Source: Craspedostauros australis
Taxonomy: Eukaryota
NCBI GenBank assembly: GCA_030167865.1
Contig: JALAGF010003204.1
Span: forward strand, 1 to 64,000
Length of the DNA stretch: 64,000 nt
Direction of reading: 5' to 3'
Positions within the stretch are counted from its first letter, which is position 1; each line of letters begins with the position of its first letter. Shown piece by piece: positions 29,611-62,186 of the stretch. A program made the position numbers and the translations under genes. Under the pieces are notes generated by a model that did not search any database, was not told where the DNA came from, and was given only the letters and a program-made list of their open reading frames with translations.

Positions 29611-30093
29611 CTCATACTCGTAACAAGCCCAGCCACAAGTGCGAAGACTCTGTTGGCACTGTTCCGTTTCTCTGCTTCGTCGCATCACCCGACAACAAAA
29701 AAGCCTCATTCATCTGCTCATAATCTCTACGCTCACGTCCTTGCTGCATTCCGTCCACGCTAACAACACCAACGCCACGCCAGCTTCTACTCAACGCTCA
29801 CCATCCATCGTTGACCGTCCATCATCCATCTTCTTCGCTCTTCAACCACGTTCACTCGACCTTCAGCTCATACTGCAATCGCTAACCCATCCATTCACCG
29901 ATCTGTAAACACGCTGATACGCCGACAAGTCCGCAACTCCATCACCCATCAATCAGGCCACAAGCGAAACCGTGAACGTGAACGCCAAGCTCGACTTCCA
30001 CAATCAACTGTCACAAACTTTCCAGCACCGCAGCAATCACACGTACAAGCTCAAGTACAAGAACACAAGTATCGACAACCTCAGAGTGCAACG

Positions 30094-34103: not shown

Positions 34104-35585
34104 CCTTGCAATGGAAAATGGTGTCTCCGTCTGCTGCTTGTGTCCTGGTGCTGGCGTTGTTGGAGCTGCTCTTCTTGTGGGATTTGCAACAGCCTCGAGG
34201 CAATGCCGTCTGTGACCTCTTGATGAGTGGTGCCTTCAGAACTTCACCAGAAACTTTCTCACTCCGCTGTACTACGACTATACTCTGCGGCAGTTGCTCG
34301 TTCTTGATCGCTGTGTTCTCTTCGCTGATGGCTCGTGTGCCTCTTGCGCCTTGTGTTGGTATGGTTGAGGCCGTCAATTGTCTCTCAATCCAACTGGATC
34401 TCTCTCTCTCTCTCTTGCATCGACTTCCTTGATCGTGTGCTGTCCAGTGCTGTCCGTGCTTCTCTTGCAACCGATGTGTTTGGCTCCCAGACTCAATTTG
34501 TGTGGGGTTCGATTTCAAATGTCGACAAAAACGAGAGCGGTTCAGGCCGTGGTTGTTCGTTGCTGTCGCCAATGTTGGTGTCGGTGCAAGAACGCCACCA
34601 CTGTCAAAAATCTGTTCAACGATTCTCAAATCCTTTCCGGCTTCCTGTTCGTCTCCTTGTTCCTAAATGATGCCGACAAACCAAAGATGTGAGTTGCTTG
34701 TGGCGTTATGTAAAGTGGTGGTTGCACCATGTGAGACCTGGACAATATTACCATGGATCAAATTTTGACGTTAACATCGAGAATTTTAAATGGGCGACTG
34801 CATCCAATGATCACAAGAACAAAAGGGACAACACCGTGTGTGACATCACAGAACCTCACAAAATCGAGAGTGTCAAACAAAGAGTGGCGCCAAAGGTCCA
34901 GCCAAGCAGGGCATAGCAGAGCGTCCACGGAGGGCACCATTCCCTCTCTCTCTCTCTCTCTGCAGAGAAACAGAATGGTGCTATCGACAGGACCACGCTG
35001 ATCTTCACAAGTAGAGCGGCGTCATCGAATAGTACGATAACGAGCACGATTACACTATGAAGCCTCCACTCGTAGTGCAATCTACTTTACGATCGTTGTT
35101 GAGGCCAACGCCAGCATCTGATTGATCCGTCCTACTTGATTCGAAGCCTCGCGACGATGTTCTTCTCATCTCCCGAATGGAGCGTGCCTACGTATGTGGA
35201 AGAACCAGAAGTGTGTTTCGCTGCGTGTCTGGTCGTTGAATCTTTGCCGAGCGTTATCGTACTTTGCTCGGAAGATGATGGTGGCTTCCGCCTCATCCGT
35301 CGGTGATCTTTCGGCCCTTGTAACGGAAACGCCAAATCATGTGAACGTTGCACAGGCCTCTCTCTTTGTCGTCGTGAGAAACTGCGCAGGGAGAAACAAG
35401 AAAGATCTTGTCAACACAGGTGACATCAACAAAGCCCAAAAACTACACAGCAGAACATCACCAATGGCGACACCTTGTCAAACCAGCAAAGATACCTCAC
35501 CTCTCTGTCGCATCACATCCATGTCTCGTGCTACTACAAACCAGCAAAGAGCAGAGTACCCCTCTTCCTCTTTGGTACCAATGCA

Positions 35586-36863
35586 ATGAACTTCCAGGAG
35601 GTTCTTCGATTTACTTGGTTGCTTTGCCTTTGCCCGCATGCCGAAAGTCTGCGACCCATCGTGCCTGTACCATCCCAACACTCATGCTCGTACTACATCG
35701 CTCCTGATCTGCGCCATCAGTATTCTGATCATCCGACTTCCTCCCGCACAAAATCACCACGACGCTTTCGACAATCTGCAGGATTAGCAACGCATCATCC
35801 ACCACAGACGGGCCATCGCACAGCATCTATCACGAGAACGATGGCTGCGATTGGATCGTGGGCGGAGCTGACGCCACCAACGTTTGATGCGGGCGTGAAG
35901 GATGCCAAATCTGTGCCCAAGCAGATGTACAAGAACGAAGACTTCAAGGCGGCCGTGATGGACGCCTGGGCGGCGGAGCTGTCGGCCACCGATGACGTGC
36001 AACAAGTGGAAACCGCATCCATCGTGTACTCCTCCTCCGAATCTCCAACAAACTCAAGTGGAGGCTGTGGTGATCCCATCACAACACCATTGTATGGCCA
36101 TCTTGTACGGCGATGCAAACCATCAAGCAGCGATACCGACGATGGAAGCGGTGCCAAATCTGTACAATCGTCGTCGACGAATCCAAACATCGGCGCGTTG
36201 TTCTTTCACACAGCAGCAGGACCGCACGACGCATTCCTCCTGTGGAAGGCGGCCTCGTTGCTGCAGCACGTCGATTGCACGATCCTCATTTGCGATCTGT
36301 TTTCCGATGAATCCGGATGGGGATGGGATCCTGATCGCTCCCGGTACCAAAAGGTCCGCGAACATCTCTTCGCTGGCGCGAATGACGACGCACCGCACGT
36401 GCTGCAGCAGCGCGTTGCGGCGGCATGCGATACCATCCAGAACGGAAGGAAGGACATGAAGATCGCGGCTCTGGGATGGTGCTTTGGTGGGCACCCGATC
36501 CTGCAGCTGGGGAAAATGAACCTGCCCAACCTGCACGCCATGGTGACATTCCATGGTGTCTTCGATACGCGTCTTGCGACCATGAAGCAGTCCGACGTAT
36601 CGCAGGAATCAAAAACATCGCAAGCCGCAGTTCTGCTGTGCCATGGAGAGCAGGACCCGTTCGTTGCATTGGCCGATGTGGAGCTGTCGGCCAAGTCTCT
36701 GGAATCGCACGGACACCGCGTTCGCGTGCTGGAACTGAAAGACGCGATGCATGGATACACCAATCCAGCGCAAGATCTGAATCCCAATCCATCCTTCGCG
36801 TATCAAGCCGAAGGGGCAAATCGGGCATGGGCTGATGCCGTCGAGGTCTTGAAATCGATCTAG
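35586..36863 (+). CDS. Dienelactone hydrolase family protein with N-terminal targeting peptide
   Basis: Nucleophile elbow GWCFGG, VTFHG, LLCHGEQDPFV, HGYTNP (Cys-Asp-His triad). Confidence 0.85.
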   Translation: MNFQEVLRFTWLLCLCPHAESLRPIVPVPSQHSCSYYIAPDLRHQYSDHPTSSRTKSPRRFRQSAGLATHHPPQTGHRTASITRTMAAIGSWAELTPPTFDAGVKDAKSVPKQMYKNEDFKAAVMDAWAAELSATDDVQQVETASIVYSSSESPTNSSGGCGDPITTPLYGHLVRRCKPSSSDTDDGSGAKSVQSSSTNPNIGALFFHTAAGPHDAFLLWKAASLLQHVDCTILICDLFSDESGWGWDPDRSRYQKVREHLFAGANDDAPHVLQQRVAAACDTIQNGRKDMKIAALGWCFGGHPILQLGKMNLPNLHAMVTFHGVFDTRLATMKQSDVSQESKTSQAAVLLCHGEQDPFVALADVELSAKSLESHGHRVRVLELKDAMHGYTNPAQDLNPNPSFAYQAEGANRAWADAVEVLKSI

Positions 36864-37535: not shown

Positions 37536-38204
37536 CGCCTGTATCTTTGTGGTGGGAAGGTGACTGCTTTGTTGGGAGGCTCGCGGATGGGTGTGCACAA
37601 CCAATTAGGGTACCGTGACAACACTGATGAAGGCGGGTTTGATGCCAATGACTCCAATGACTCCAATGACGCCAACGACGCAGGGATGATGAGGATACTC
37701 TTGCTCTTATCGGTGCTTGTAGAATGGGGTGACAGGCATTCACGACAACTCGCTCCACTATCGCCTGTTGCGGTTGTTGCAACTGTTGCGATTCCATCTG
37801 ATGCGTTGTTACGTCCACGTTCGCTTTTGTCTCTCTCTTGTTTCTTTCGATTTACAGTATTAGTCGACTGTGCTTTTATTTTGGCGCGAAACTGATAATC
37901 GACAACTTTGACTGCTCTCAACTGAAGAAAACAAACAGAATATCATTCACGAGTCAGTTCGGCTGATTCGTGACTGTCGTTTCTACTCAGTCTGTCCACC
38001 ACACGGAGAGATGTGAAACAGAGCGAATCTGGGCTTCTCTGCCACCACCAACACAAAACATGATGTCAACCCAACATTCGGAGGCCGTCCTGGAGTGGGT
38101 GCCCATCAAAGATCGGCCACAGGTTCATGGGTATCACAATCCTTGTTGCGTGGTAGTACGATCTAATCAATCTGAACAAACGGACCCCCATCAAAAGCAA
38201 CACA

Positions 38205-39518
38205 ATGGCGACGGAAGAAGACGCTACCGAAGACCAGGCAGAGCCAAAGCCTGCCCGTGAGGCTGCACAGAAGCCCCGTCGAATCATCCGCAGACGGAGA
38301 CGCAACAAGGGACCGGAGATCGACATGGCGCTGCTGGAGAAGACCGTGCAAGCGTCCAGCCTGCCCAAGGCCTACAGCTTCGAGCTGCCCAAGACGGTCC
38401 AGCGCATCCAGTCCATAGGCGCTGCGCATGTGGCCTTGCAGATGCCAGAAGGTCTCCTCATGTACGCAACCGTGCTGTCCGACGTGATCAAACGGCTCTG
38501 TCCGACGCTCACGCAGGTTTCCATCCTGGGCGATGTCACGTACGGAGCCTGCTGCGTCGATGATCTCGGAGCGAAGGCCCTGGGAGCCCAGCTGCTGGTG
38601 CACTACGGCCACTCTTGCCTGGTGCCCATCCAGCACACGGCCATTCCATGTCTCTACGTCTTTGTGGAGATCACCATCGATGTGCCGCATCTCGTGGACT
38701 GCCTCGACATGACCCTGTGTGGTGCGCCCGTCTCCACATCAGCTTCGACGTCAGCAGATGTGGATGTGCCTACTAATTCAGACACTAGTGTGGAGACGAA
38801 GCCTCTCGTCTACCTCCTGGGCACCATCCAGTTCCGCCACGCTCTGTTGGAAGCTGATAAGCTCCTGCAAGCCAAGGGATACGAAACCAAGATCCCGCAG
38901 GCCAAGCCACTGTCTCCAGGAGAAGTTCTGGGCTGCACATCGCCGGTTCTTACCAGCGACAGGGATTCCAACGCGGTCGTGTGCTTCGTCGCGGATGGAC
39001 GTTTCCACCTGGAATCCACGCTCATCTCCAATCCGCACATCCCTGTGTTCTACAGGTACGATCCGTACAGCAAGGCGCTGACGGAGGAGGCCTACAAGCA
39101 TGAGGAGATGAAGGACATTCGTCACAACGCCATCCAACGCGCTCGATCCGCCAAGACCTTCGGCATCTTGCTCGGGACTTTGGGACGTCAGGGAAACCCT
39201 GCGATCGTGCAAAGGATCAAGGAGACGCTGCGCGCGCAAGGCAAGCGCCACTTCCTCATGCTCGTCTCGGAGATCACGCCGCACAAGCTGGCTCTGTTCC
39301 ACAACATCGACGCATGGGTGCAGGTGGCATGTCCCAGACTTTCCGTCGATTGGGGACATCATCTGTGCGAAAAGCCCGTCCTCAACCCATACGAGTTGAT
39401 GGTGTGCCTCGAGAAGTCGGAATGGAGGAAGGTGTATCCCATGGACTACTACGCGCAGGCTGGCGGCGAATGGGCCAACTACCATGAATCCAACAAGAAT
39501 CGTGTCATCGAGATATAG
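38205..39518 (+). CDS. DPH1: Diphthamide biosynthesis protein 1
   Basis: VALQMPEGL, GDVTYGACCVDD, HYGHSCLVP, GEVLGCTSP, DGRFHLES, LGTLGRQG, QVACPRLSVDWG, YPMDYY. Confidence 0.95.
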   Translation: MATEEDATEDQAEPKPAREAAQKPRRIIRRRRRNKGPEIDMALLEKTVQASSLPKAYSFELPKTVQRIQSIGAAHVALQMPEGLLMYATVLSDVIKRLCPTLTQVSILGDVTYGACCVDDLGAKALGAQLLVHYGHSCLVPIQHTAIPCLYVFVEITIDVPHLVDCLDMTLCGAPVSTSASTSADVDVPTNSDTSVETKPLVYLLGTIQFRHALLEADKLLQAKGYETKIPQAKPLSPGEVLGCTSPVLTSDRDSNAVVCFVADGRFHLESTLISNPHIPVFYRYDPYSKALTEEAYKHEEMKDIRHNAIQRARSAKTFGILLGTLGRQGNPAIVQRIKETLRAQGKRHFLMLVSEITPHKLALFHNIDAWVQVACPRLSVDWGHHLCEKPVLNPYELMVCLEKSEWRKVYPMDYYAQAGGEWANYHESNKNRVIEI

Positions 39519-42244: not shown

Positions 42245-45113
42245 CTACGGTTCCAGCGCATCAGGCTGGCACTGAAAGCAGCAGTCCGTGCAACAATCGC
42301 AGAGGATCTCATCGCAGTCGGCGTAGAGCTGGTTGATGGATGACGCGTTGCAGACGGATTGCGGCATCTCTCCAACGATGTTGTTCTTGTAAAGTCTGAA
42401 TGTCTCCAAAGAAGCGAGCGAACCCAGCTGATGCGGAACGTCTCCAATGAGCTCGTTCCTCTCGATGCTGAGGACGCGAAGATGGGAGAGCCGCGATAGT
42501 TCTTCTGGGATCTTGCCATCCAAATCGTTGCGTGATATGATCAGAGATTCTGCGGAGCAATTGTGTTGGGATGTGAGGGTATCAACAACAGCGTGTGTTC
42601 GTTCCCAGTGATGACGACGACAGACACGTAAAACGTAGAAAAGGGAAGAAACCACTTGGGAAAAGATAGCATGCCATTTGGTGTCATGTGAGTCTGCTTG
42701 TCATATGATGCCATGTGATTGTTGATAGAATTGCATGGATGTATGTTGTCACACCATGGAATTCCTCGCATACTCATGCATTGTACAACTACAACTACGA
42801 GATGAACGTACCTAGCTTCGACATGGCTCCGACGTAAGATGGGATGCTCCCTGTCAGCTTGTTGCCTTGTAGGTTGAGAGTGACTGCGAAATGCAATGCA
42901 ATGCAATGCGATACGGCGTAGCGAAAGGTGATGTGCGAAAAGAGGACCTGTTAGTGGACGCTTGACGATCATATCTTGAAGGGTGCGTGTTTGGATAGCA
43001 CCATGGGTATGTACTCTACTCGTTTGGGAGAGAAGTTACTGCCCGCGAAGTGTCATCTCGCGCAGTGCATACATGGGGCCACAGTACAAGTAATACCAAC
43101 AGCGACTGCAGCTGCAAAAGCATGCGGAATAGAGTACAGATGCCCACCTCTCGAGAGGAACGTACCGAGGTTGGAGAGCAACGCGATTTCGGATGGGATC
43201 GATGATTCCAGCCGATTGCTGCCGAGGTGCAAGGTCTGCAGCGTGTCTGAAAGCATCCAAAGTCCCGATGAGAGATTCCCACCCAGGCTCAAATCTTCCA
43301 AATGGATCGTGGTCAGGTTACCATCACTGTCGCAGACAGTCTCTGCACTGGTGATGTTGCTGGAGCGAGCTCTATCCATCGTGTTTGCGTCGTGGAATGT
43401 TGAGAACCAGGTGCATTCATCGGTGTAGGTCATCCACCCGTTCATGCCGTCCGCTCCGAAGACGATGCGTGAATCCAACGAGATGTGCCTGTTCCGACTG
43501 TATGATCCTTCCAGATAGATCATCGCCATTGCGAAACGCTGCAACAGACGAGTGGACATGTACGAGGGGAATGCAGGATCGGCCAGAAGCCAATGCAAGG
43601 CTCTGGATTGGGGGCTCTGCTCATCCTCAAAGTCGGTCGTGCCCTCTCGCATTTTGTTCGTAACAAGGTCCTTCAGGAGCAGCTCGTTTGCCGTTGTTGG
43701 AGCGTCGCTGGGGGACTCACTTGGGAGCATCGTCGGCCTCGAGGTGGGTGACATGGAGATGCTTGGCGTATTCGAAGCAGTCTCAGTTGGTGTTTGAGAG
43801 GTGGAGCCGTTGGTTGGTTCTTGGGTTGGCATACGCGTTGGAGGGTGTGTCGGTATGAGCGCTGGTGCTACGGTGATTCTGGAGACCTCGTTGGGCGCGT
43901 TGGGCGGAAGCGAGATGCTCGGGCTGAGTACTGGTGCGCTTGACACATCCGCCGACGAGGATGACGACGATGATGATGAACTTGAAGTGGAGCTGTCATT
44001 TCGACGCACGTGCATCAGCAGCAACCCACAAAGGGCGACAGTGATTGCAGAGATCACGCACAGCACTGCCGTCGCCAGGACATATCTCTTGAAACGTTCT
44101 TGTCTGTTGTGGATCAGGAGTCGTTTGTGGGATGCATTTGGATACTTTGCACCCTTCTCCTGGTGCGACGTCCGGGTCTTGACCGGACTTTTGTTACTCG
44201 CGACGAAAGTGACTTCACTCTTGCGAACTGGTCTACCGTTTCCATTGGAAGCATCTCGTCTCCGTTTGCCCTCGCAGTCGCTCACAATCTTGAGATTGTC
44301 TCCAGTGTGCTGATATCGATACTTGCGATTGGCTTCGAGGTCATCATCGTTGAGCTGAGCACGTTGAGGTCTCCCACGCTTGCTCTGCGCAGGCCGATGT
44401 TGCTGTCGAGTAGCTCTGGACGCACGGTTCGACGATGGCGTCCGTTTGCCAACACTCTCTATCTCGGGAATGCCGCACTCTTCTGCAATATGGGAGGCTA
44501 CCTGCGCCATATCCACAATGCTCAAGTCATCCTCCATGTATCCGTCGTGATCTTGATCTCGTTGAGAAAATCCTGATGACATGCTGCGGTTCTTGGCTTG
44601 TTGACGCTGGTGACCATTGGCATTTCTGTTGCTGTTGCTGCTGCTGTCATTGTGCCCTCTACTGTTTGATTGGCCCTTCGTGGGTTGCAGCAGAGCCTCT
44701 CCTGTGCTGACCACACTGCGAACGGACGCGATCAGTCGCTGCCTGATCTTCCGCTTTTCAGCTTCATCCGTCGTTGTGGCTTCCGTGGAATTGGTCGTGT
44801 CAAATTGTGCGTCACTTCGACGATGGCGACCATCAACCGCGTCATCCCATGCTTCGTCTTCTTCATCCTCCTCTTCCACCTCGTGGATGGTGTCTACGAA
44901 CGGCCTGTCATCATCTTGGAAGAAGCTCTCTCTTGTGGATTCATACAGAAACCGACGCATGAGGTCGTGATCGCTGTCGCTCATTCCTTTTGTCTCGTGG
45001 TCGGAACCACTACGCTCCAGCGCCTCCGTCTGTTTCTGCCTTCGCGCACTCCTTTTGACTCTCGCCTTGACACCTGAAGTGGCAGCCTCGAGGTCGACAC
45101 CATGTTGCTCCAT
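42245..45113 (-). CDS. Type II single-pass LRR receptor-like protein E; exons 45113-43166, 42883-42812, 42549-42245
   Basis: TM YVLATAVLCVISAITVALCGLLLM; SPQSRALHWL, LLQRFAMA, DECTWF; LRRs spliced in frame through phase-1 introns; DCDEILCDCCTDCC cap. Confidence 0.85.
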
Positions 45114-46464
45114 AATGTTCTTCCCTGAAATCTCGCTGTGATTGTGTCGCCTTTGGTTTCCAGCCGTTGTGGATGTTGTATTAGTGCGAGTGAAGTCGCA
45201 ATACGTCTCAGTTGGTTGTCCTTTACTCGATTTCTTGATGCACCTCTTCGGCTCTCTTCCGTGGAATTGATGCAGATACTCGTCTCGGGAGACTGATTCT
45301 CTCGTGATGTCTCACTTGGTTGCAATGCACCCTTGTTTTCTTTGGATGTTTGGATGTTGTGGCTGTTGCCGACTCTAACTTTTGAAATCGCTTTTGGGTA
45401 TCGATGCCAATGTCAATGTTGATGTCAATGTTGATCGAATGTTGATCTAATGTTGATCTAACGTTGATCTGGTTGCATGATTGCAGACGCCGATGGTCCT
45501 TGTCCTTGAGCTTGTGATCGAATGAATGTCCGCGGTGGGCTTGTCGCCATTCGCTATCACGCTTGCATGAAAGTGTTGGCAAGCAGAGATAAGTGCTGAT
45601 ACGATGATGACGGAGCAGAGAATTGAATGATACTCTGCCAATACTCTACTATTCTACAGATTTTGATGCAACTGCTGATGTGGCTGTGAGTGTGATAGCG
45701 GGAGCGGGCAATGCGGGGGAGGGATCATCATCGCTGCTTTGGTTCGTTGACGGGTGTTTGGTGGAGAAAGGAAAACCAATCATGTGTGAAATTGTTTTTG
45801 GTTGGAGGCTCTCTATCCAATTCAAATTTCAAGTGGCCCCAGTTTCTCAGCCTGTGTGTGGCTGACGCGTTTCCGTGAAGGGCATGCGAGCGACACACAC
45901 GAAACCGCAATGCCATTTGGCGCCATTTCTTTACAAGACACGAGTGATTCGACAAGGTGAGCGAGCCGAGGAGGGACGCGCAAAAAGCGTGGCGAGATGT
46001 CAGAGAGCACAGCGCAGAGCAGCGCGGGTGCGACAGAGTGCCGAATGGTGCATAGTACTGACACGGAGACCAGTAGTCGTATGAGTAGCTGGCATTGGTC
46101 CGTGCGAGTTATGCATGTCGCAGGTACAGTACGCCTGGACTCGAATACGGATGCTAACAGCGCCACTTACATTTTCTAACCCCGTCTTGTAGCGCTGTCC
46201 TGGTGCTCAGACTAACTTCATGGACTACTCTTGGTTGGTTCGCAGCCGCATCAATTGTATTCGCAGGTTTGGTGGATCTGTCGTGGAGTCGTTGCAGATA
46301 CTCTCCTGATGAATTCCCACCGTGTTTTCCACGTGTGACCTCGACTTCCAGATGTACGCGTGCCACTGCTAATCACAAGCACTTGTATCATTGATCGTCC
46401 CGCTGTTCCATGACACTATCACGATGAATTCTCTCGTCGAAATGTGTCATGCGACGTCGTGCCG

Positions 46465-49741: not shown

Positions 49742-51711
49742 TTACGGCCGATTCTGTCCATTTTGGGGTGGCGCTCCTGGATCCCCTCCGGCAGACGCCT
49801 GATCCTGTACTGTGTTGAACGAGCTGCAGCTTGGGCACTGGGTTCCCAGGAAGTGCCAATTCTGCCGTACGCTCCTGGCTTCGCAGTCGTTGCAAATGAT
49901 ATCGACCGATCGTTGCAAATCCGCCGGCATGGGATGCTCGGCAATATCCCGAGCGCGAGCCTCCCAAGCCGCCGCCATCGACTGCTGTGATACCACTGTC
50001 TTCTTGCAAATGGGGCAGCGATAATCGAAACCAGCCAGCTTCCGGAAGCAGTGAGCATGGATGGCATGCCCGCACGGCAGATCCTGCGGGGATTGTCTTG
50101 ACGAGAACATATCTTCGCGGCAAACTGGGCAGTTGTTTTTGTACTTGTCCTTGAAGCATTGGTGCGTGTTGAAGACGCTGACGGAGATGCACATGCAGCA
50201 TTCGTTACAGTGTCTGAATGATTCTCTTCCGCCGACTCTGCAGAATCCACATTGGTGACAGTGGAACGGCTTCCGTGACTGTGTGCGCGCGTTTGCAAAC
50301 AATTGTGTACGGTGTGGCAAAATTGGTTTGTGTGCGTGTTTGGGTGTATGCATCGTGCATGGACAGCGTATCCATAGTGTGCGGATGGTTGGGTTCGTTT
50401 GGCGTGGTGTGGAATTGGTCCCAGCCAGAATGGAAATAGGCATGGAGGAGTGAGTTGATGTGCTGTTGTGAGTATTATGGTACAGACCAACGATGATGTG
50501 GGCGTGGATGTGGATCTGGATGCGGTTCACTTGGACACCATCAAGAAGATCGAAAGGAGAAAGAGCAGACCCATCCCAAAGACCTTTGCCATTCCAACAC
50601 AAGAACGCAAAGTCGCCCCAGCAAAAATGCAAACCTACCTGCGCCATCCATAGGTTACAGATATGGCAGTGATATTCGCCAAACACCGTTTGGCAACTGA
50701 TACAATGATTCCTGTGTCGTTCCGAACGTTGTTGTTGTTGTTGTCGTTGTGCGGTACAATGATGGTTGATTGATTCAATGATTGAGTGATTGTTTTCGTG
50801 GAGCAGATATCGATCGTCCAGGCCAATACGGAGACACGAGAAAGTGAAATGGGACGTGAGAAGCTGGCGTTAGCGTTAGTGTTTGTATTTGAAGAAGCTT
50901 TGATGTCAACCATTGAACAGGCCTCTCCAGGAGCACACAGCAGCGCAGAACCAGCGCCATGGGATTCTTCATGGATACCAACGCATGTAATCGTTTGGGT
51001 GGATGAATGATGGCGAAGCGAATATAGTATCTTGCTGCAAGAGCAAACATTCTCATAATCGCAGTTACCGATTTGCTTCGCCATTTCAATCTCGATCAAG
51101 TAGAGACCCCCAGACAGAGGCCATACTCCCCGTCTCACGACAACGATCGTATCAACAGAGACACACTCCATACACAACCACACGCATACAACCACACGCA
51201 TACAATCACACGCGTACATGCGCGACACTTACGACGCTGCCTGCCTGGTATTGCAGAGCTTGCAAACGACTTCCCGCACATGGAATCGGTTCATGGGCGG
51301 GTGCCCTGGCGGGCTCATCTCGTCATGGCAGATGCGGCAGCCGAAAACCCTGTTGCAGCACGGCGCCACGATGTTGCAATTGCGCTCGTAGTGACCGCAG
51401 ACGTTTCTGCTCTCGGGGGTTGGCACCACGGGTGCCTGCTGGGGCGTGACCTCCGTGCGTCCACCAGACATGAGGTTTTGGATCCTCATTCGCTTCTCGG
51501 CATCGCTGAGCGACGTGTCTCTCTGAATGGCCTGAATGGCTCTGCGACGTGCAATCGCCGCATCGTCCTCCACCCGCTCCGGTGCTGGTGCTGGCGCGTC
51601 TTCGGCCATCTCCTCTTCATCCTCCTCGTCCTCCTCGTCGTCTTCATTGATGTCATCGTCGCTGTCACCCATATCAGCGTCGATCATGACGTAGTCATCA
51701 CCGGATGCCAT
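49742..51711 (-). CDS. RCHY1: RING finger and CHY zinc finger protein (Pirh2-like E3 ligase); exons 51711-51233, 50711-50639, 50278-49742
   Basis: CGHYERNC...CCNRVFGCRICHDE, FGEYHCHICNLW, FHCHQCGFCRVG, RING CPVCREDMF...LPCGHAIH...CPICKK, zinc ribbon ICNDC...CPSCSSFNT. Confidence 0.92.
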
Positions 51712-52799: not shown

Positions 52800-52850
52800 C
52801 TACTCCCATTCGATTGTGGCAGGCGGCTTGGAGCTGATGTCGTAACAGAG

Positions 52851-52884
<34 letters not shown>

Positions 52885-55245
52885 CTGCTCATGGTGCCCA
52901 TCACATCGTAGGGGAGGTGGTAAAAGTCCGCGGTCATGTAGTCTGTGGTCTCCACGCAACGGACGCTGGCGACCCATTCGTAGGTGCGTCCATCTCCCAT
53001 GACGCCGACCGATTTGACCGGGAGCAAAACGACGAAGGCCTGACCGATCTTGCGGTAGTGACCGCTCTTCAACAGCTCCTCGATCACGATGTCATCGGCT
53101 TCCTGGAGGATCTTGACCCGGTCGCGTGTCACCTCTCCCAGGATGCGGATGGCGAGGCCTGGACCAGGGAATGGATGGCGCCACACGCTGGTTTCATCGA
53201 TTCCCAGCGCCATTCCCAGCTCTCTCACCTCATCCTTGAACAGTTCGCGAAGTGGCTCGATCAGCTTGAGCTTCATGGTATCAGGCAGACCACCGACGTT
53301 GTGGTGCGTCTTGATCGTCGCAGATGGGCCTTTGTAGGAGATTGACTCGATAACGTCCGGGTACAGGGTTCCCTGGAGAAGGTACTCGCAATTGCCATTC
53401 AGATCGTTCTCGATCTTGGTCGCCTCCTCTTGGAACACCTCAATGAAGGTGTTGCCGATGATCTTTCTCTTCTGTTCAGGATCGGTGACGCCGGCCAGCT
53501 TGTCGAGGAACCGGTCGCAGGCATCGACACATCTGAGGTTGACGCCGCAGTCCTCGCGCATGCGCTTGAGGACCTTCTTCGCTTCATCCTTGCGAAGGCA
53601 TCCGTTGTCCACCAGCACCGCGTGAAAACGATCGCCGATGGCGCGGGTCATCAGCACGGCAGCGACAGTTGAATCGACGCCACCGCTGACAGCGCCGATA
53701 ACATGGTGCTCCCCTACCTTGGCCCGAACCGATTCGATGAACTCATTGGCGTAGTCCGTCATCACCCAGTCCTGCTTCGCGCCCGCGATCTTGATGCAGA
53801 AGTTGCTCAGGATCGTCTTTCCCAGCGGCGAGTGCGTCACTTCCGGATGGAACTGCAATCCCCACATCTTCCTCTCCGAATTCTCGATCGTGACGAACTC
53901 GGCGTTTGGTGTCGCGGCTTTGGGCACATTCCAAACAGAAGACAAGAGCAGGCGTGGCGGTGCAATTCATCGTGAGAGATTGCCTCTGTGGTTTTCCTTT
54001 CAGACGGCTGTTCGTATGCGTATGCGCATGCGTATGCACATGCGCATGGGTTTGCGCTTCCATGTGCGTGTATGCTTGCATGTGCGCCTTGGTTTGTGGT
54101 TGCAGGCGTGGATCCGATATTGTCATGACGGATACTGAAAATGCGTACAACGGCCACGGCAACTCGCTGCCCTTGGGAATTGTCTTCCAATGCAAATGCA
54201 ATTCCAAATGATCGTCGCCCAACGACACAGCACTGCTCCCCAAGTTCATTCACATTCTTCGAGCTTGCGCAATGAATGCGGGAATTTGCAATGTGCTTTG
54301 CACGCATTTCAGAAACCCTTGCCAACATTCACATCACGACATCCATGGAGAGTAGAGCATTTTGCCATTCACAGTGCTGTTCGTGGAAATTGCACAGGAC
54401 TCACCGACTGCCTTGAAGCCGTCTGGGGACTTGGTCAACTTGTCACCATGCGACATCCACATTTGGAATTCGTTGGGCATGCCATCGAAGAGCCTGGATT
54501 CGCAGCCTTCTACTCTCTTGACTATCGCCTTTCCGTACTCGTGCTTCAAACCCGGCTCGACGGCTCCGCCGAATGTGTGCGCCAGTTCCTGCATACCGTA
54601 GCAGATTCCCAGCACGGGGACGTCACGTTCCTCGATCAGCTTCCAAACTTCAGGCTTGACGTGCGGGGCGCCTTCGTCGTAGACGCTGCTGGGACCGCCG
54701 CTCAGGATCACTGCGATGAGCTTGCGCTTGCCAAGCTCCTCGGCGGAGACCAGGCAGGAGTACAGTTCGCAGAACACATTGATCTCGCGGACGCGACGTG
54801 CGATCAAATGAGAATACTGGGACCCGAAATCCAGGATCGCCACCTGAGGGCTGCAGGTTTGTTGTTGGCGGTTGTTGGCGATTATTGTGGCATCCGTGGT
54901 GTTCCGGATGGCGAATGAAGCAATGTGGATAAAGTGAAGAGTTCGGTGCGAGGTGCAGTATCGGGGGTTAAGATTGATCATTGCCTGTGTCTGTTGTGCC
55001 GCGATGCGCTCTGTATCCTTGTGACGTGTGACAATCCAATCGCAGGGAGAAATAGAGAAAGAGCGGCAGAGCCAACGAGGTGCTCCCAAACAACAACACC
55101 GGCAGCGGTGGCAGCATGCATGTTGGCAACGCAACCTAAGTCAAGTGAAGTGTCCCGACAGGCTTCCACGATGCCAAGAGCAATGATTGATGGCCACTGC
55201 GGAATCTTACCGATCGTAGGCATCGAGTTGAGCTGATTGGGCCAT
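52800..55245 (-). CDS. guaA: GMP synthase (glutamine-hydrolysing); exons 55245-55211, 54850-54405, 53917-52800
   Basis: [87 protein letters not shown]. Confidence 0.97.
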
Positions 55246-55879
55246 CTTTTCGGTTTCGAGTTGTGGCTTTTCGTTTGTGTGTGACGAGAGTCTGTTGCGG
55301 GGATGTGTCCTGTTTTATGCCGCGCTGTGCTGTGCTGCGCTGATGCGGGTACGAAGTGCAGGTATCGGTATTGCTATCTGTGTCTGTGCCCTGGGTTTGG
55401 GTTGGGGTTTGGGTCTTGTGCCTTGTCTCGGGTGAACTTGTGTCGTTTGTTCGTGCCTTCTCTCTCGTTGGCGCCTGGTTGGCAGAATGAGACTTCACCG
55501 TTGTTCTTTCCTGTTATTCTTGATGTTCTGTCTGTTGCTTTCTTGTTCAGTGGTTGGAATGTTGGTCCGACCGTCTGCCGTTGATGGCACCCTTGTGAGA
55601 ACAACACATCAACAGGCACGCGACACTGTCATCATCTCTTGGCCACGACGATTCGCAGAGTGCGGTCCTTCGCGCAAGATCGCAGTCTACCAATGCCATG
55701 TTAGACGGAACTATTGGATGACATTGAACGGATGTATTGTATTCTACGAGAGTAGCCGTACGGTATTGCTCTTCACAATCTCGTGTTGTGGTAAACGCGC
55801 ATACTACATAGAATATAATACTATTTTAATGTACTGTGTATGGATATTGTCCTGCTCTACTCGTAAAGACACGCAATAG

Positions 55880-58828
55880 TTAGGACGCCCTGCTTTGTTC
55901 CGGGCGGGCGTCCTCGGTTCTGCGGAATGTCAACAAGTACTCGGGATAAGCCTGAGCGTCGTGATACACCACAAAGACCGATGGGTTGATGACGTCGTCA
56001 ACGGTCGAATCGTAGAGCTCGAAGCTGTTGTAGGGCTTGGGATCTGGGGTCCTCTGGCCGTGATTTCCTCTGCACCAATCCCCCACAGCCACACGGCACA
56101 TGAACATATGCCGCGTGCCGTCGTCATCCGGGACGGCGTATGCCGGGTCCATGGAATACGATGCATCGCGGGCGAAATACACTCCCCCTCCGAATGCCAC
56201 GGCGTTGCGGCCAGAAAAGCTTCTGTTGAAGCCTTGCTGGTTGATCTTTTGGATGTTGTCTGCCTCTGTACCATGAAACAGCCACTTGCGTTCCACCTGT
56301 CCTTTCAGGTTGTTGGTATAGGTGCCTGGGTGCTCCTTTTGTGTGGTCTGCATAGTCTGCAACTTCACGGTGTACGATTGCCAAAGGGACATGTTCTGCA
56401 CACGTCTGATAGACGTGATCTCGACAGCATCTCTGTCTCTGGGGTGCAGCGTGCTTCGGAAGTAATCCTTCGCACATTGGTATTCTTGCGACTCTTCGCG
56501 CAATGGATATAGTCCATCCATGACGCGCGAACTTCCATTGCTCGCTGTGTCCCAGTTTGATGGTGCCCCGAGAGACGGCATTTCCGTTCCCATATTCTTC
56601 GCCAGAGATTTCATCACACCGGCATCCGCGGCTTCGGTTGCGATTTTCGGGAACCATCCTGAAGTTCTGCGCAGCTCCATGGCGTCCATAATTGTGGCCT
56701 TGATCTTGTCATCGATCTGCGATGCCTGGCGGTTGTCGATGTTTCCTGCACTCTCCGTGAGAGGATCGAAGAGGACGTTGCCGTACGCCCAACTGTCGTC
56801 GTTTGGATGCTCTCGAACTACCTTGATAAGCTGGCCTACTCTGAGCGGGAGCAAGCCCAGATGGTCGCCGTTGATTTCATCGAAGCTGGGCGGCAAAGGC
56901 GGGAGTAAGTGACCTTGCTTGGGATCGGGTTGCAACTGGTACTCCTCGCGCTGGATGCGCCGGGCGTTCCCAGATTTCAAATTGACTTGCTTCAGTTCTT
57001 GGAGGTTCAGCTCGAAGCCCGCCCCGGTGTGAGCGTTCTGCTTCTTCTTGACGTTGCTGCTGAGCTCGATTTCGAGTATGGAGTCTTCAGGGTTCTTTTG
57101 GTAGTCTTGCCACCCTATCTCGATCAGCGTTGAGATTTCGCGGTTGTACGCAACAAACTGCGTCTCCGCCAGCCGCTCGGATTCTGGATACTGATTGATG
57201 AAGCGTTGGTCCTCCTCCCAGTACCACCTCACAACCGTGGTTGGTGCATCGTTCATCGCCTGCTGGGCCTCGTTGTACTCCGCAGACGTCCGGTGCGGGA
57301 CATTTTGCTTCACCTCCACGACCCCGGTCAATTGCACGTTGATTTGCTCCGCCATTTCCTGCAATTCCGCCGCGCTTTTTTGGAGTGCACGATACTTTGC
57401 CCGGTTCTTCCTGCACATGATGAATGTAGCAATGACGAAGACCAGTGCCACGGCGGACGTGATGAACACGTAGTTCGGGATGCTGTCCTTGTCCTTCGGG
57501 AGAGGGGTCGAATCCTCGGGGATGATCCCACATGCAGTGTCCTCTCCCATGGCCGTTGGCACGACGCATAGGCCTTCCTTGTCGAGTTGGAAGACTGGCT
57601 CGGTTCCGTCGGATGGCACCGTCACCTCGCCGACTGACTTCCATGCGTACGAGTCAGACGCAGCTCTCTGCAAGTTGACGATGGAGAACCTTGGGTCCTT
57701 TCTGTCGCCCGTTTCGGTGAAAGCGACGGGTCCACTGACTCCGTCGAACTCGAGCTTCTGAAGCTCCTGGACCACACTTGCACCATCTCTGCGCTTGTCG
57801 GCAGGGACACGACCGATGGCCTTCGCAGCGGAGACGATGGCATCCACCATCATCTCGGCAGGGTACTCGGGAAGATCGTCGTATGTGTCCAGCCCTCGCT
57901 GAGCGAGGTATTGGTTGAACCGTCGCAGGAAGTCCGCGTACTCCTCGTTCCTGTTGCGGAGCGGAACCACGCCAAGGAGTCCGGGGTACGGTCGTTCTGG
58001 CGAGAATTCGGGGCTGTACCGTTCAGCCCATGCTTCGGGTGCCAGCCACACCGCATCTTCTCGCGCCAACCCCTGGGCGTACACCTGGTCCAAGATCTGG
58101 CTTGCGTCTTGGGCGTGCGCCACGAGAAGGATGATCTTCGAGTTCTGCTCAGAGTCAAGCCCTGGCAAGCTCTCCATGGCCTGGCGCACAGCGTCGGGGT
58201 CCACCATCGTGTTTCTCGCGTTGGCAGAGTCTCTCACGAAGGTGATGGTCGGCGCCTGGTAGGTCGTGCCACCCTGGGACTCCCACAAGTCGCGAAAGTC
58301 CTTGGTGAGATCTCTCGCGAATTGCTTGTCGGTCAGGAGGATGTGGACGTTCGTCCATCCCATTGCCTTGAGCACGCCCGCGAGGCCTCCGACTTGACCG
58401 AATTCGTTGTCGGGCGGGACCATCCGTGAGAAGAGCGGGTAGTCGTCGGCCCTGTCCGAGAAGATGGTGGCGGTAGACGAGATCGCCACTTGGGCGATGT
58501 TCTCCAAGGATGTGACCGTGGCAACGCTATTGGAAGCGCCGCTGCAGCGACAGCCTATCACGGCGTGGATCGCCTGGTCGAATTCGGAGCGGAGCTCCCA
58601 GTAGGCCCTGGACGCCTGCGCTGCGTCGCAGCCAGCATCTCCGATCTTACTGGTGATGGTGAATTGATCATTCTCGAAGATGTCGTCGTGCCATCCATCG
58701 GTGGGGTCGTTGAGGAAGGCGACGACGGCATTGAAGAGATCGTAGCCGTATGGGGTGTTGGCGACTCCGTACAATCCAGCCATGTTGACGACGGAATCGG
58801 TGCCGTTGACGCTCGGATTGGTTGCCAT
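55880..58828 (-). CDS. Single-pass membrane protein: ANF-receptor/Venus-flytrap ectodomain, TM, coiled coil, WWE, SH3, PARP catalytic domain
   Basis: AVIGCRCSGAS, QVAISSTATIFSDRADDYPLFSRMVPPD, MGWTNVHIL, FDGVSGPVAFTETGDR; TM YVFITSAVALVFVIATFIMC; VRWYWEED...KQVNLKSGNARRIQR; LPLRVGQLIKV...WAYG...GWFP; WLFHGT, GFNRSF, FGGGVYFARDASYS, MFMCRVAVG, YDSTVD, FVVYHDAQAYPEYLL. Confidence 0.88.
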   Translation of the reverse strand: MATNPSVNGTDSVVNMAGLYGVANTPYGYDLFNAVVAFLNDPTDGWHDDIFENDQFTITSKIGDAGCDAAQASRAYWELRSEFDQAIHAVIGCRCSGASNSVATVTSLENIAQVAISSTATIFSDRADDYPLFSRMVPPDNEFGQVGGLAGVLKAMGWTNVHILLTDKQFARDLTKDFRDLWESQGGTTYQAPTITFVRDSANARNTMVDPDAVRQAMESLPGLDSEQNSKIILLVAHAQDASQILDQVYAQGLAREDAVWLAPEAWAERYSPEFSPERPYPGLLGVVPLRNRNEEYADFLRRFNQYLAQRGLDTYDDLPEYPAEMMVDAIVSAAKAIGRVPADKRRDGASVVQELQKLEFDGVSGPVAFTETGDRKDPRFSIVNLQRAASDSYAWKSVGEVTVPSDGTEPVFQLDKEGLCVVPTAMGEDTACGIIPEDSTPLPKDKDSIPNYVFITSAVALVFVIATFIMCRKNRAKYRALQKSAAELQEMAEQINVQLTGVVEVKQNVPHRTSAEYNEAQQAMNDAPTTVVRWYWEEDQRFINQYPESERLAETQFVAYNREISTLIEIGWQDYQKNPEDSILEIELSSNVKKKQNAHTGAGFELNLQELKQVNLKSGNARRIQREEYQLQPDPKQGHLLPPLPPSFDEINGDHLGLLPLRVGQLIKVVREHPNDDSWAYGNVLFDPLTESAGNIDNRQASQIDDKIKATIMDAMELRRTSGWFPKIATEAADAGVMKSLAKNMGTEMPSLGAPSNWDTASNGSSRVMDGLYPLREESQEYQCAKDYFRSTLHPRDRDAVEITSIRRVQNMSLWQSYTVKLQTMQTTQKEHPGTYTNNLKGQVERKWLFHGTEADNIQKINQQGFNRSFSGRNAVAFGGGVYFARDASYSMDPAYAVPDDDGTRHMFMCRVAVGDWCRGNHGQRTPDPKPYNSFELYDSTVDDVINPSVFVVYHDAQAYPEYLLTFRRTEDARPEQSRAS

Positions 58829-60183
58829 CTTTGTGCGGTGTTGCGATTGAAGCGCAGTGTGAATTGTTTTGCTTTGCTTTGCTTTGTTTGTTGCACTTCG
58901 TTTGCTGTTTTGCATAGATTATGAGCAAATGGAGATATGTATTGCTGCAGCGAAGATGCTAAATCGAAGATGAAGCGTGAGAAAGCGAGAGGGGACGGTC
59001 AAAGCAACTGCAGCCATCGCGTAGACACGGTGAGATGCCCAACTTCTTCGCAGACTTGTCTCACCATGCGAACGACCTGTGGTAGTCGTACCTCACGATG
59101 AAGAAACCTTTTCTTTTTGGTCGCTCCCCCATGGACATAGAGTTCTCATGTCTTGGGCACCACACATGCGTATCTTCCGCGCCAAGGCAAGCGCGAAGGA
59201 CGGTAGTTGGTGTACGTAGGCATGGTACAAGGTATGCGACCAAGAAAGCGCCGTCGGGTCTTGGGTGCTGACATCGCCTCACTGCGGGCACTGCTCCAGC
59301 AGATGACGCGCATGGCCTCGAGCCGTTCGCAAGTCCAATAATTGCGCAACGCCAAGAAGAACAGATGGCGATGAGACATGCGCAGGCGCCACTGAGCCTC
59401 GAGTTTCGAACGAAAGGCTCAATCAAGCTTCTGTCCATTTCCGTCTCAGAATCGGTCTCTCTGTCGCTCTGTCGTTCTTCTCTTCAATCTGTTCGTCGGA
59501 GGGAGGCTTCCCATCTTTCATGTCTGGCTTCCATCCGAACTGTCAAGATACCAGCGGCGTCAAGACATCCATCGAGGGTGCGATCATAGCGGCGAGTCCT
59601 GATTCCGCTCGCCACTTGGCAGAAAAGTGTGTGCTCTGGGTTCCTGTCGCGGTTTGGAGAGGCGAAGAAATGAAGAGAACAGCGTCTCCCGTTTGCGTGT
59701 TGTGACCTGTAGACACGGACAACGTATGCACGTAACAAATGAATAATTATAACATTATTGTATTCGTACTGGTCCATCACTCCTGTGCGAATTTGAACTT
59801 AGATTCTATAAACATGGATAATAAGTAATTTACCTCCGTATCCCACAAGAGCAAAAAGCAAAATGACGGTTTTGCGTTCGTAACGGACCAGACCCATTCA
59901 TTTTGTCTAGAAAGACCTCGAGGAACGGATGTGACCTGTCGCGAGTATGTACGCAATGAAGCAAACATCATGCAGCTGCCATACCCAGGTCGGACTGCCC
60001 CGTGAAGACTCCACATGTTGTCGGAAGCGATTCTATGATGTATATTTATGGTCGAAGTACTGTTTGTAACACATCCTCTGCTTGAGGGAGTTAGTTCTCT
60101 GCTGTGGACAACAAATGTGTGCATTGTACTGAGCAAAGAAGAATGGACAAGCGTTGGCTTGTACGAGTAGATAATGCACGGTT

Positions 60184-62186
60184 CTAAAGCAACAAAGCGA
60201 TGCCCGCTTGCAGAAGAAACGCCACGGATGCGCATGTCGACGCCAACGATGAAAGGCCAAACCACGTCGACGGAGGTGCCAGGATTGCTGTTGCGGAGGA
60301 AGTGGGCGTTGGCGCCGATGTCCCTGAGCCACCAATGCTTCGATCTGTCTGTTCTGTGTTACTTGGCGCATCGGTCGGGGGGTTTGAAGGTTTGTCCGAT
60401 GGGGCTGACGATGCCAGCGACGTTGGAGAACTACTGGGGGCTGAAGTTGGCTGGTGGGAAGGAGTTGGTGATGGCAGTCTGCTTGGAATCGACGTTGGGA
60501 CTGCCGTCGGCATTACTGACGGTGCTCGTGACGGCATCGTCGTTGGGGTTGATGAGGGAGCGCCGCTTGGGGTCGATGACGGCGAATCGCTGGGCGACGA
60601 CGACACAAAGGGTGATTCGAGGTTGCAGAATTCGATCTCTCCAATAAACGCGCTTCTGGAACTCGAAAAGAACGGTTGCGCATCGTCGGTGGCCTCCTCG
60701 CTCGAAGCACCGTAAAACACCGTGAAGTAGCAGCCGGGGCACTCCACGTTCTCATCCGGATGTTCGATGGCACCATTGGCGAATATGTCGGTGTCGTCGG
60801 ATGCCGTGTCAATTCTCAAAGCGATCACATCGTTCCTTTGTGACACCTCCAATGGCGAATCGAACGGGACGGAGTCTGTGAATTCCATCTCGCCTCTCCC
60901 GCGGACGCTTCCTGAAGCCACCTGCATCCAGCTGCCCGGTTCTTCCCACGTGCTGTTCCTCCACCAGATCGTGTATGGTTGGATGGAGGTATCCGGCAGG
61001 ACGAGCTTGAGGCCATTGATCTGAATGGCCTGGTGGACCTGGATGTCAAATCGAAACGATTGCACGTCGATCCCGCAGTAGCTCGTCGCAAACTCCGTGT
61101 GCCTCCAGAAACCACACGACAAGGTTGGCGAAGCAGATGATGATGGCGCCGCCGTTGGCGGTTCTGACGACTGGGAGGGCATCGCAGTCGGTGCGACTGA
61201 ATCCGTTGGAGCAAAGGTGACAGGCACACGCGTCCCGGTGTGGCAGAAGGTGAGAGCGCCCATGAAAGCGTCGAAGCTGCCTCTGTAGAGGGGCGCGGCA
61301 TTGGCCGTTGCCTGCGTGCTGGACATTCCGTACATCACCGTGAATGCTGCGGATCCACCCTCCACGAATGCGGCTGGATGCACGATGGGAGCACGACGAT
61401 CGAAGAAGCTGTTGGTGGATGTCGGTGTGTCGACGCGGAAGGCAATGATTCCGCTGCCGAAGGAGACTTCAAGCGGTTCATCGAATGGGATGCGATCCGT
61501 GTAAGCCGAGATTCCTTTCGCTACTACCATTCCCGATGCCAGCCTTGTCCAATTGCCGACCTCGTTCCACGTGCTGTCCCTCCACCAGATATTGTACGGC
61601 TGTTCGGATGTGCCCTGAAGAATGAGTTGCATCCCATCGAAGGAGATATCGTCATGAATCTCGACATCAAAACGAATGGAAGCAATATCGTCATCAAAGT
61701 ACAGTTCCGCGAACTGCGCATGCCTCCATTCGCCGCAACGCACAGTAGGTGCGGCGGAGCCTGTAGGTTCCATGGTTGGTGCTGTGCTGTTATCCTGCAA
61801 TGGTATTGAACGACGGTACATGATGCGCAACGGCATCGAGTGGAGCAGGGCGGAGTTGAACAGAAAGAGAGCGTGAGAAGACTTGCGGAAGTTGGGAAGA
61901 CTCCTCCTCCTCCTCCTCGCGCTCGTGTGTCATTGGTTGGAAGGTGAACTTTCGGGCTCATGAAGAATGGCAGGGATTCCTCCGCTCAACAATTCTGTCG
62001 CGGCGCTCGCACATGTTCACGATCATTCAACCACCATCATCGTCGTCATCGTCATCGTCGTCATCATCATGGTTGACGCTCTCCCTGGTTCGATGAACTC
62101 ACCTGTGACGATTCTGTGCTTGCAAGGAGACACAAGCACAACTGCGCGAATCCAACAGCCGAGTATCTCATCTTCGTGATCTTCAT
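60184..62186 (-). CDS. Secreted, probably GPI-anchored or C-terminally anchored protein with two tandem copies of an unrecognised ~170-aa domain; exons 62186-62103, 61794-60184
   Basis: Exon 1 encodes signal peptide MKITKMRYSAVGFAQLCLCLLASTESSQ, spliced in phase 0; duplicated CGxWRHxxFA...RFD...QPYxIWWRxSTWxExGxW...PFDxPLEVS...AFxGxxxFC; PS/PT stalk; hydrophobic C-terminus. Confidence 0.8.

Follow-up and report, generated by a model that had tools for sequence, protein, structure and literature searches.

A receptor-like ADP-ribosyltransferase gene of Craspedostauros australis and its modular relatives in marine protists

The P0001 gene and its product

On contig JALAGF010003204.1 of Craspedostauros australis (assembly GCA_030167865.1) we have analysed a window of 64,000 nucleotides, that is, the whole stretch from position 1 to position 64,000 of the forward strand, and in particular one gene on its minus strand whose product, the query protein of our searches, is called P0001 here. 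The gene is real, and it stands in an extensive, modular class of marine protist proteins, receptor-like ADP-ribosyltransferases that are apparently undescribed. The gene and its parts are as follows (TM, transmembrane; KD, hydropathy value; rows, aligned relatives):

55880..58828, minus strand: single-exon open reading frame of 982 residues (P0001), with the order Venus-flytrap (VFT) ectodomain, cysteine linker, TM helix, juxtamembrane helix, WWE, SH3-like domain, PARP
57614..58792, minus strand: VFT (periplasmic-binding type I) ectodomain, residues ~13-405 (Pfam, Foldseek, mGluR alignments, conservation in 58 rows)
57530..57568, minus strand: membrane-proximal linker with the cysteine pair C421/C433 (Cys in 56 of 58 rows at each position)
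57413..57472, minus strand: single TM helix, residues 453-472 (KD 2.64, basic residues on its C-terminal side, N-out/C-in)
57332..57412, minus strand: juxtamembrane helix continuing the TM helix, residues 473-499 (DSSP helix 453-499 in the model; pLDDT, the predicted local distance difference test score, below 50 for much of it)
56933..57241, minus strand: WWE domain, residues ~530-632 (VIA fold match, conservation)
56630..56866, minus strand: SH3-like barrel, residues ~655-733 (VIA, Pfam matches of homologues, conservation)
55919..56578, minus strand: PARP-type ADP-ribosyltransferase domain, residues ~751-970 (Pfam, phmmer, VIA, Foldseek, conservation)
58919..59017, minus strand: upstream in-frame ATG with a moderately hydrophobic stretch of 32 codons, closed by a stop before the main frame

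The frame runs from an ATG at 58828 to a stop at 55880 with zero internal stops. An earlier, sequence-only reading of this DNA had proposed just such an uninterrupted frame, joining a type I binding-protein ectodomain through one TM helix and a basic stretch to WWE, SH3 and PARP domains; all 982 codons are indeed open, its domain coordinates prove correct to within a few codons, and the architecture, the topology and the analogy to receptors that it drew are backed by homologues, folds and residue conservation. The VFT, TM, WWE and PARP parts are established, and the SH3 domain is likely but weak. A full-length AlphaFold model (18 sequences) has a mean pLDDT of 73.7, and a model of the 458-residue cytosolic part (64 sequences) reaches 87.9. 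An NCBIfam scan of P0001 gave weak solute-binding and histidine-kinase matches and nothing more; the best ESM Atlas clusters for the whole protein are NPR3-like at 0.75-0.76, which is a lead only, and its SH3-like part found no match there. No second copy of the gene was found in the window by tblastn. In sequencing run X1, which we only guess to be RNA, identical contigs cover 55802-57248, 57236-57450 and 57578-57763; none of them joins the ectodomain to the PARP domain by at least 31 letters, and the 5' end of the gene is uncovered. Contig depth in X1 differs, 125 against 6-7, but these contigs cannot rank the parts of the gene; we claim neither a short isoform nor expression from them.

The N-terminal half of P0001 matches both the flytraps of G-protein-coupled receptors (GPCRs) belonging to class C and that of NPR-C. 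Pfam assigns residues 55-388 to ANF_receptor (E 8.9e-37), with Peripla_BP_6 as a further match (E 1.2e-13); the closest Foldseek structures include the GABA-B ectodomain 4mr7 (E 1.1e-21) and NPR-C 1jdn (E 5.2e-21), phmmer relates the VFT to class C GPCRs at E 5e-15, and the full-length model also matches CaSR, mGlu8 and mGlu5 structures. The ligand pocket is well conserved. Alignment of P0001 to mGluR6/7 places S96 (58541-58543), T119 (58472-58474) and F170 in it; R94 is a further pocket residue. Among the 58 VFT rows, Ser occupies position 96 in 57, an aromatic residue position 170 in 57 and Arg position 94 in 50, and position 119 is T, N or S in 55 (T36/N10/S9). According to PMC4977154, the carboxylate of the ligand is bound by a conserved Ser in CaSR, mGluR and GABA-B; S96 aligns to this Ser. 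Within the VFT, C67 and C95 likely form a disulfide, and a second is predicted between C421 and C433 in the linker.

Only one window of P0001 attains a KD of 1.8 or more, a strongly hydrophobic helix from residue 454 (KD 2.64), and the basic stretch follows it as proposed. Hydropathy and charge support an N-out/C-in, type I single-pass layout. As to the N-terminus, the two relatives nearest to P0001, namely P0002 and P0003, begin with a clear signal peptide. Others, among them P0008, P0010, P0012, P0240, P0070, P0093, P0141 and P0242, lack one and start about 12 residues or less before the first flytrap strand; either these short leaders are a shared annotation gap or they mark an unusual insertion route.

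For the cytosolic part, a profile search returned 432 proteins of 882-2515 residues at E <=1e-20, of which 120 were listed. The alignment used below comprises 117 of these (without P0249, P0259 and P0260), six homologues from the first search and 13 short rows. The WWE domain is borne out by its fold (VIA: TRIP12 Z 10.9, root-mean-square deviation (rmsd) 1.9 over 73 aligned residues; HUWE1 9.8; RNF146 9.2), despite a sub-threshold Pfam score at residues 535-627 (E 0.013, 16.3 bits, cut-off 21.1); against PDB sequences, the WWE alone gave a single chance match (E 1.6). P0001 has the adenine/phosphate pocket motif W537, F605, Q614, N616 and R623, and judged by motif spacing, with no superposition, this pocket matches the adenine and phosphate contacts of RNF146/ZAP described in part of PMC8853533. 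In non-gap rows W537 is kept in 127 of 128 and Q614 and R623 each in 131 of 133; position 605 is Y or F across the family.

A proline-rich segment (residues 644-648) precedes the next barrel, which is interrupted by a two-helix insert at residues ~689-718 and carries the conserved residues W680 (128/136), G683 and G724-W725-F726-P727 (G724 in 135/136). All nine rows that VIA aligned to model residues ~109-223 are SH3-bearing, at Z 4.3-5.5, the range of a possibly common arrangement; Pfam SH3 has no match in P0001, and SH3_2 matches in homologues are sub- or near-threshold (E 1.2e-4 and 2.3e-4). This is the weakest of the domain assignments, and we use the label SH3-like.

The PARP domain, by contrast, is unmistakable (Pfam, residues 780-969, E 1.5e-27), and is closest to PARP15 (phmmer E 4e-43, ~40% identity; VIA Z 27.4, rmsd 1.5 over 191 aligned residues). 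The earlier reading had named PARP7/11/12/14-like proteins as its examples of WWE-PARPs; the catalytic domain is nearest to PARP15/14/10 and not to PARP7/11/12. PARP15 numbering was mapped by alignment and checked against the relevant part of PMC12572374: H559 corresponds to H852, R576 to R869, N582 to N875, L659 to V951 and D665 to D957. The catalytic triad is H852 (56273-56275), Y884 (56177-56179) and V951 (55976-55978). Over 136 rows the His is present in 135 and the Tyr in all 136, and the third position is hydrophobic with one exception (I93/V15/L12/M10/T1, five gaps; Glu in none of the 131 non-gap rows). Loss of the catalytic Glu is a mark of mono-ADP-ribosyltransferase (mono-ART) activity, according to the text seen of PMC2964712, and since a hydrophobic residue replaces it here, the domain is, from its H-Y-V residues, of the mono-ART type. 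Nor is P0001 a macro-PARP like PARP9/14/15: Pfam matched no Macro domain in it, and the VFT, TM, WWE and SH3-like parts fill the region. Three other identities can be set aside: P0001 is not a poly(ADP-ribose) polymerase of the PARP1/2 or tankyrase kind (no catalytic Glu), a GPCR (a single TM helix) or a receptor cyclase (no cyclase domain).

Other genes and open frames of the window include those below; the GMP synthase, LRR and PT-repeat neighbours, like the closest named homologues of P0001, suggest a diatom:

52800-55140, minus strand: GMP synthase, at least two exons, directly downstream of the P0001 gene
60184-61929, minus strand: upstream neighbour with a repeated domain without Pfam match, a Ser/Pro/Thr-rich stalk and a hydrophobic C-terminus
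16279-33537 and 60184-61929, minus strand: cluster of leucine-rich repeat (LRR) and PT-repeat proteins, probably cell-surface
7597-9138, minus strand: PcfJ-like domain in a frame of 513 residues (E 5e-7, above the cut-off), from a family known in phages and mobile elements, here in a eukaryotic contig
10212-11444: methyltransferase (housekeeping)
14144-15703: SET protein (housekeeping)
35424-36863: dienelactone hydrolase (housekeeping)
38157-39518: diphthamide synthesis protein (housekeeping)
49742-50869: RING/zinc-ribbon protein (housekeeping)
43053-45311, minus strand: frame of 752 residues, no Pfam match at E 0.1
21402-23864, minus strand: frame of 820 residues, no Pfam match at E 0.1

A common cytosolic module with exchangeable ectodomains

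One might suspect that a gene for a solute-binding protein and one for a PARP had been joined artificially, in assembly or in annotation. However, besides lying in one open frame, the fusion is conserved. ANF_receptor and PARP occur together in 19 of 50 P0001 homologues, and in 16 of the 50 one local alignment spans 87-99% of P0001, junction included. These full-span homologues come from several genomes and include two transcriptome-derived proteins: P0002 of Stauroneis constricta (45% identity to P0001) and P0012, which is marked complete. Because 16 homologues, two of them transcriptomic, align across the junction, we take the fusion to be no chimera and reject that reading, whose probability is now negligible; the suspicion of two separate genes falls with it. 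Named homologues also come from Seminavis robusta, Cylindrotheca closterium and Nitzschia inconspicua, and the automatic database names of homologues are 'Poly [ADP-ribose] polymerase' and 'receptor family ligand binding protein'.

The attachment to a membrane helix is equally general. A TM-like window lies upstream of the WWE in 122 of 123 long relatives (median gap 68 residues; 53-136 from the 5th to the 95th percentile), with more positive charge on its PARP side in 119 of the 122; as a control, no TM-like window occurs in any of 120 cytosolic parts. What lies outside the membrane is far more variable. Cache domains replace the VFT in 20 of the same 50 homologues, and a census of 132 labelled proteins sharing the WWE-SH3-PARP module gave VFT in 49, VFT with EGF in 3, 5'-nucleotidase with VFT in 7, 5'-nucleotidase in 2, Cache in 31, dCache_1 in 1, NMT1/CUB in 21, PstS-like in 3, Bmp in 2, LRR (often with HRM) in 6, TNFR-like in 1 and unassigned in 6. 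Folds that bind small molecules, such as the VFT and the triple Cache, are the majority. With some ten ectodomains that can stand in for one another, of which the VFT is just one, it is the TM-WWE-SH3-PARP module that deserves attention. Among the matches listed, carriers include five proteins of Aureococcus anophagefferens. A Cache form bearing a ciliate transcriptome label is possibly prey-derived, and the LRR forms with HRM have identifiers that are presumably in the style of choanoflagellate sets.

The wider collection holds some variants on this plan. P0219, P0243, P0245 and P0249 are multi-pass versions of the module with four to seven hydrophobic windows and a 5'-nucleotidase, TNFR-like or dCache_1 ectodomain; these are possible GPCR-like PARP fusions. 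In P0071, P0197, P0201, P0203, P0207, P0209 and P0213, a 5'-nucleotidase C-terminal domain accompanies the VFT, making them possible nucleotide sensors or enzyme-plus-sensor receptors. P0123, P0062 and P0046 comprise soluble proteins in which the PARP domain is repeated in tandem, five times and three times, as well as a fusion of Mad3/BUB1 with PARP from Prymnesium polylepis.

The phylogeny of the cytosolic module does not follow the ectodomains. A FastTree phylogeny requires 27 changes of ectodomain label, against a minimum of 10, when unassigned and outgroup rows are left aside; this tree misplaces three animal outgroups, so we draw neither a root nor an order of events from it. P0202 (VFT) and P0200 (NMT1 and CUB) have C-terminal parts of 599 columns with 77% identity, and between their N-terminal parts no match was obtained.

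There is, moreover, a second diatom lineage, in which the VFT-TM unit is the same but the PARP belongs to another clade and stands before the WWE (PARP-WWE). A search with one of its members gave 91 matches, 61 of them carrying both ANF_receptor and PARP; the proteins (P0058 and P0261-P0328) come from Helicotheca, Fragilaria (five), Pseudictyota, Conticribra and Seminavis (two), and the Fragilaria crotonensis paralogues lie in tandem. Of 80 checked, 79 have a TM helix; in all 49 readable rows the last residue of the triad is V or I. Some shorter members without a Pfam PARP match may be truncated or cut models. The PARP domains of this lineage cluster with relatives that have no TM helix and separate from the P0001 clade at 100/100, with animal PARP14-like domains falling on P0001's side of the split. 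The two lineages thus have different PARP clades, and receptor PARPs therefore appear, from these sequence groupings, to have arisen twice. An approximately unbiased (AU) test against a single clade of both receptor lineages gave p 0.014, on which we do not rely because some of the 'other' rows are placed within the first lineage, of which they may be fragments.

P0001 itself seems to have parts with different histories. In a 35-row IQ-TREE phylogeny the tail of its subgroup joins Cache-type tails (100/100), and the alternative of keeping it beside the remaining VFT tails from diatoms fails the AU test (p-AU 8e-52), the grouping so tested having first been suggested by FastTree. Its ectodomain falls among the second lineage (92-93 by the approximate likelihood ratio test SH-aLRT). 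With the tail grouping in one place and the ectodomain in another, the P0001 subgroup looks like a recombinant, with a sensor from one lineage and a tail from another, no direction being implied.

A possible signalling mechanism and its alternatives

We consider it probable that P0001 is an enzyme-linked receptor in which ligand binding switches on cytosolic mono-ADP-ribosylation, perhaps through a PARP15-like pairing of catalytic domains; the gating by ligand is something that we infer. Sequence and fold place the VFT outward, at the cell surface or in a lumen, and the WWE-SH3-PARP part in the cytosol. From the conservation of the pocket, a small anionic amino-acid-like solute might bind in the S96/T119/F170/R94 cleft and close the flytrap. 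To judge from the class C GPCR and NPR flytraps, closure would alter receptor pairing and bring the TM and juxtamembrane helices together, and the higher local concentration of catalytic domains could then favour the head-to-head pairing that PARP15 and tankyrase require. The PARP domain, with its H-Y-V triad and intact NAD site, would mono-ADP-ribosylate itself or nearby proteins. The WWE might recognise ADP-ribose, in the way that SH2 recognises phosphotyrosine, and so bring about feedback or clustering, while the SH3-like domain might recruit substrates or restrain the enzyme. In the family as a whole the cytosolic module is a constant signalling cassette on which one sensor has repeatedly taken the place of another.

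The pairing step, taken on its own and argued by analogy, is tentative. PARP15 is described in part of PMC12572374 as active only as a dimer held by R576-D665, and tankyrase as using a homologous interface (PMC12572374 and bioRxiv 10.64898/2025.12.15.694324). The equivalents of these two residues are kept, R869 in 134 of 136 rows and D957 in 129 of 131. A number of points nevertheless weigh against the proposed mechanism or parts of it. The PARP14 and PARP10 domains are monomeric according to the same part of PMC12572374, and a fish PARP14-like protein keeps both equivalents, so R869 and D957 are not diagnostic of pairing; nor are the two residues found in the second lineage, which has M in 75 of 78 and N in 49 of 49. 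Some 60 residues and two domains separate the membrane from the enzyme, making rigid coupling unlikely. The full-length model has a predicted template-modelling score of just 0.49, position 605 in the WWE of P0001 is Phe instead of Tyr, and the ectodomain-tree supports around P0001 are below the mark of 95. WWE-SH3-PARP without a TM helix occurs in 19 of 260 collected proteins; several of them are plainly fragments, but soluble forms may exist. At the start of P0001 there is no signal peptide (leader KD 0.13); nine spliced candidates for an upstream leader exon passed a hydropathy filter, none of them convincing, and a hydrophobic leader is present in only 31 of 58 VFT relatives, with fewer than 20 leader residues in 10. 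The upstream stretch at 58919..59017 is probably due to chance, 11.6% of the 1293 ATG-started open 32-mers in the window equalling it in hydrophobicity. Finally, the activity, ligand and gating of P0001 are themselves predictions.

Several other explanations have to be set against ligand-gated ADP-ribosylation. P0001 could be a constitutive membrane-anchored mono-ART, its ectodomain serving location, adhesion, turnover or solute scavenging and gating nothing. The long and variable TM-WWE linker would suit this, as would the LRR, CUB or EGF ectodomains of some relatives, types appropriate to adhesion, and PARP16 is a known membrane-anchored PARP without an ectodomain (PMC4245714, in part). We find this unlikely: most of the ectodomains are small-ligand-binding folds, the flytrap pocket residues are kept, and repeated sensor swaps on a fixed cassette are hard to explain without control by the sensor. 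There is also the question of the output, which might be that of a ligand-gated NAD+ hydrolase, producing free ADP-ribose or NAD+ depletion as a second messenger, in defence or in cell death, with the WWE sensing the product. The TIR fold often acts as an NADase, and P0112 carries a TIR domain behind this very VFT-TM, which gives the sensor a further output related to NAD+. Lineage-specific expansion and shuffling (five paralogues in Fragilaria, at least six in Seminavis) are reminiscent of immune receptors, and the isolated PARP15 domain was mostly an NADase in one assay (bioRxiv 10.64898/2025.12.15.694324, in part). But TIR was found in just one of 57 proteins scanned, the acceptor-side motif of clade 3 is retained in full, and characterised relatives modify proteins, so that we give a hydrolase output rather little credence.

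It is also conceivable that the family are receptors and P0001 itself a mis-started or mis-targeted copy, degraded, inverted or made mainly as a shorter cytosolic WWE-SH3-PARP form, for it has no hydrophobic leader or convincing upstream exon, and an in-frame Met at residue 525 lies directly before the WWE. Yet the frame is intact, the pocket, cysteine and catalytic residues are retained, and P0002 and P0003 do start with signal peptides. Since short leaders recur in relatives, including the complete-marked transcript P0012, they may be a real type of start or a common annotation gap, and a defective P0001 appears improbable. A Notch-like release, in which the ligand would cause the protein to be cut within or close to the membrane so that WWE-SH3-PARP could act elsewhere, for example in the nucleus, would accommodate both the linker length, which hinders direct coupling, and a cytosolic part that models well alone. 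No cleavage motif was noticed, no dedicated search having been made, and flytrap receptors of known mechanism signal through dimer rearrangement (PMC4977154, in part); we rate such release as very improbable. Gated ADP-ribosylation thus remains the explanation that we prefer.

Relation to known receptors and implications

The NPR receptor guanylyl cyclases have a VFT, one TM helix and a cytosolic enzyme, and P0001 resembles NPR-A/B and the clearance receptor NPR-C in these respects and in its membrane-proximal cysteine pair. It differs from the cyclases in its WWE-SH3-PARP output, with no Pfam or fold match to a kinase-homology or cyclase domain. NPRs bind peptides between protomers, whereas the P0001 pocket resembles the amino-acid site of class C GPCRs. 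With mGluR, CaSR and GABA-B it shares the VFT fold and the Ser/Thr/aromatic site, the ligand being predicted only; unlike them it has one TM helix rather than seven, lacks the nine-cysteine domain and has an enzyme in place of G-protein coupling. The clade 3 mono-ARTs (PARP15/14/10/12) share the H-Y-hydrophobic triad, a WWE upstream of the catalytic domain and the R576/D665 equivalents, but P0001 has no macrodomain, RRM, KH or CCCH finger and has instead an ectodomain, a TM helix and an SH3-like domain. Ecto-ARTs (ARTC1-5 and CD38-type) are likewise membrane-bound, NAD+-using enzymes; their catalytic domain is extracellular, and they form another class, whereas that of P0001 is cytosolic, behind a sensor. 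Receptor kinases and Toll-like receptors place variable ectodomains (LRR, CUB, EGF, Cache) on a fixed cytosolic module and have expanded by duplication and shuffling. The P0001 family has the same design, with writer (PARP), reader (WWE) and adaptor (SH3-like) in one chain, but its chemistry is ADP-ribosylation from NAD+ and not phosphorylation or TIR assembly. In design, then, P0001 works like a receptor kinase or cyclase and fails membership of both families.

The nearest precedents are PARPs tied to a membrane helix: PARP16, which has a C-terminal anchor and no ectodomain, and the TM-bearing clade 3 PARPs of sponge and Rhizaria. The part of PMC4245714 that deals with the latter gives them one sentence each, a sponge protein with an N-terminal TM helix and PARP and Rhizarian proteins with H_lectin or TM, and contains no sensor-TM-WWE-SH3-PARP cassette, family or receptor role. 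Our literature searches, with most subscription papers outside their scope, found no description of a receptor PARP or of this architecture, in keeping with the earlier reading, which knew of no such characterised class; some other publication may mention it, and automatic database annotation already contains the combination of domains by implication. The system was perhaps overlooked because PARPs were first thought absent from diatoms, early surveys having found none in those sequenced (PMC4245714, in part).

Taking these data together, we incline, with some reserve, to the view that marine protists (diatoms, pelagophytes and probably others) rely for sensing in general on undescribed receptor ADP-ribosyltransferases, a counterpart of receptor kinases and cyclases, with a fixed TM-WWE-SH3-PARP cassette, some ten sensors, many of them solute-binding, and at least two origins from different PARP clades, in which ligand-driven catalytic pairing would turn an outside cue into cytosolic ADP-ribosylation. 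To our knowledge, the output of single-pass receptors is otherwise a kinase, a phosphatase, a cyclase or an adaptor domain; if gating by ligand is true, this would be a new class of enzyme-linked receptor and the first instance of a PARP under direct control of a molecule outside the cell. Because sensors are exchanged in nature, the mechanism lends itself to tests with chimeras, and the family is a natural test of whether catalytic pairing of the PARP15/tankyrase type is a general PARP switch. For the diatoms themselves, these proteins, with genes in Seminavis, Cylindrotheca, Nitzschia and Fragilaria, are candidates for the sensing of dissolved nutrients, bacterial cues and pheromones.

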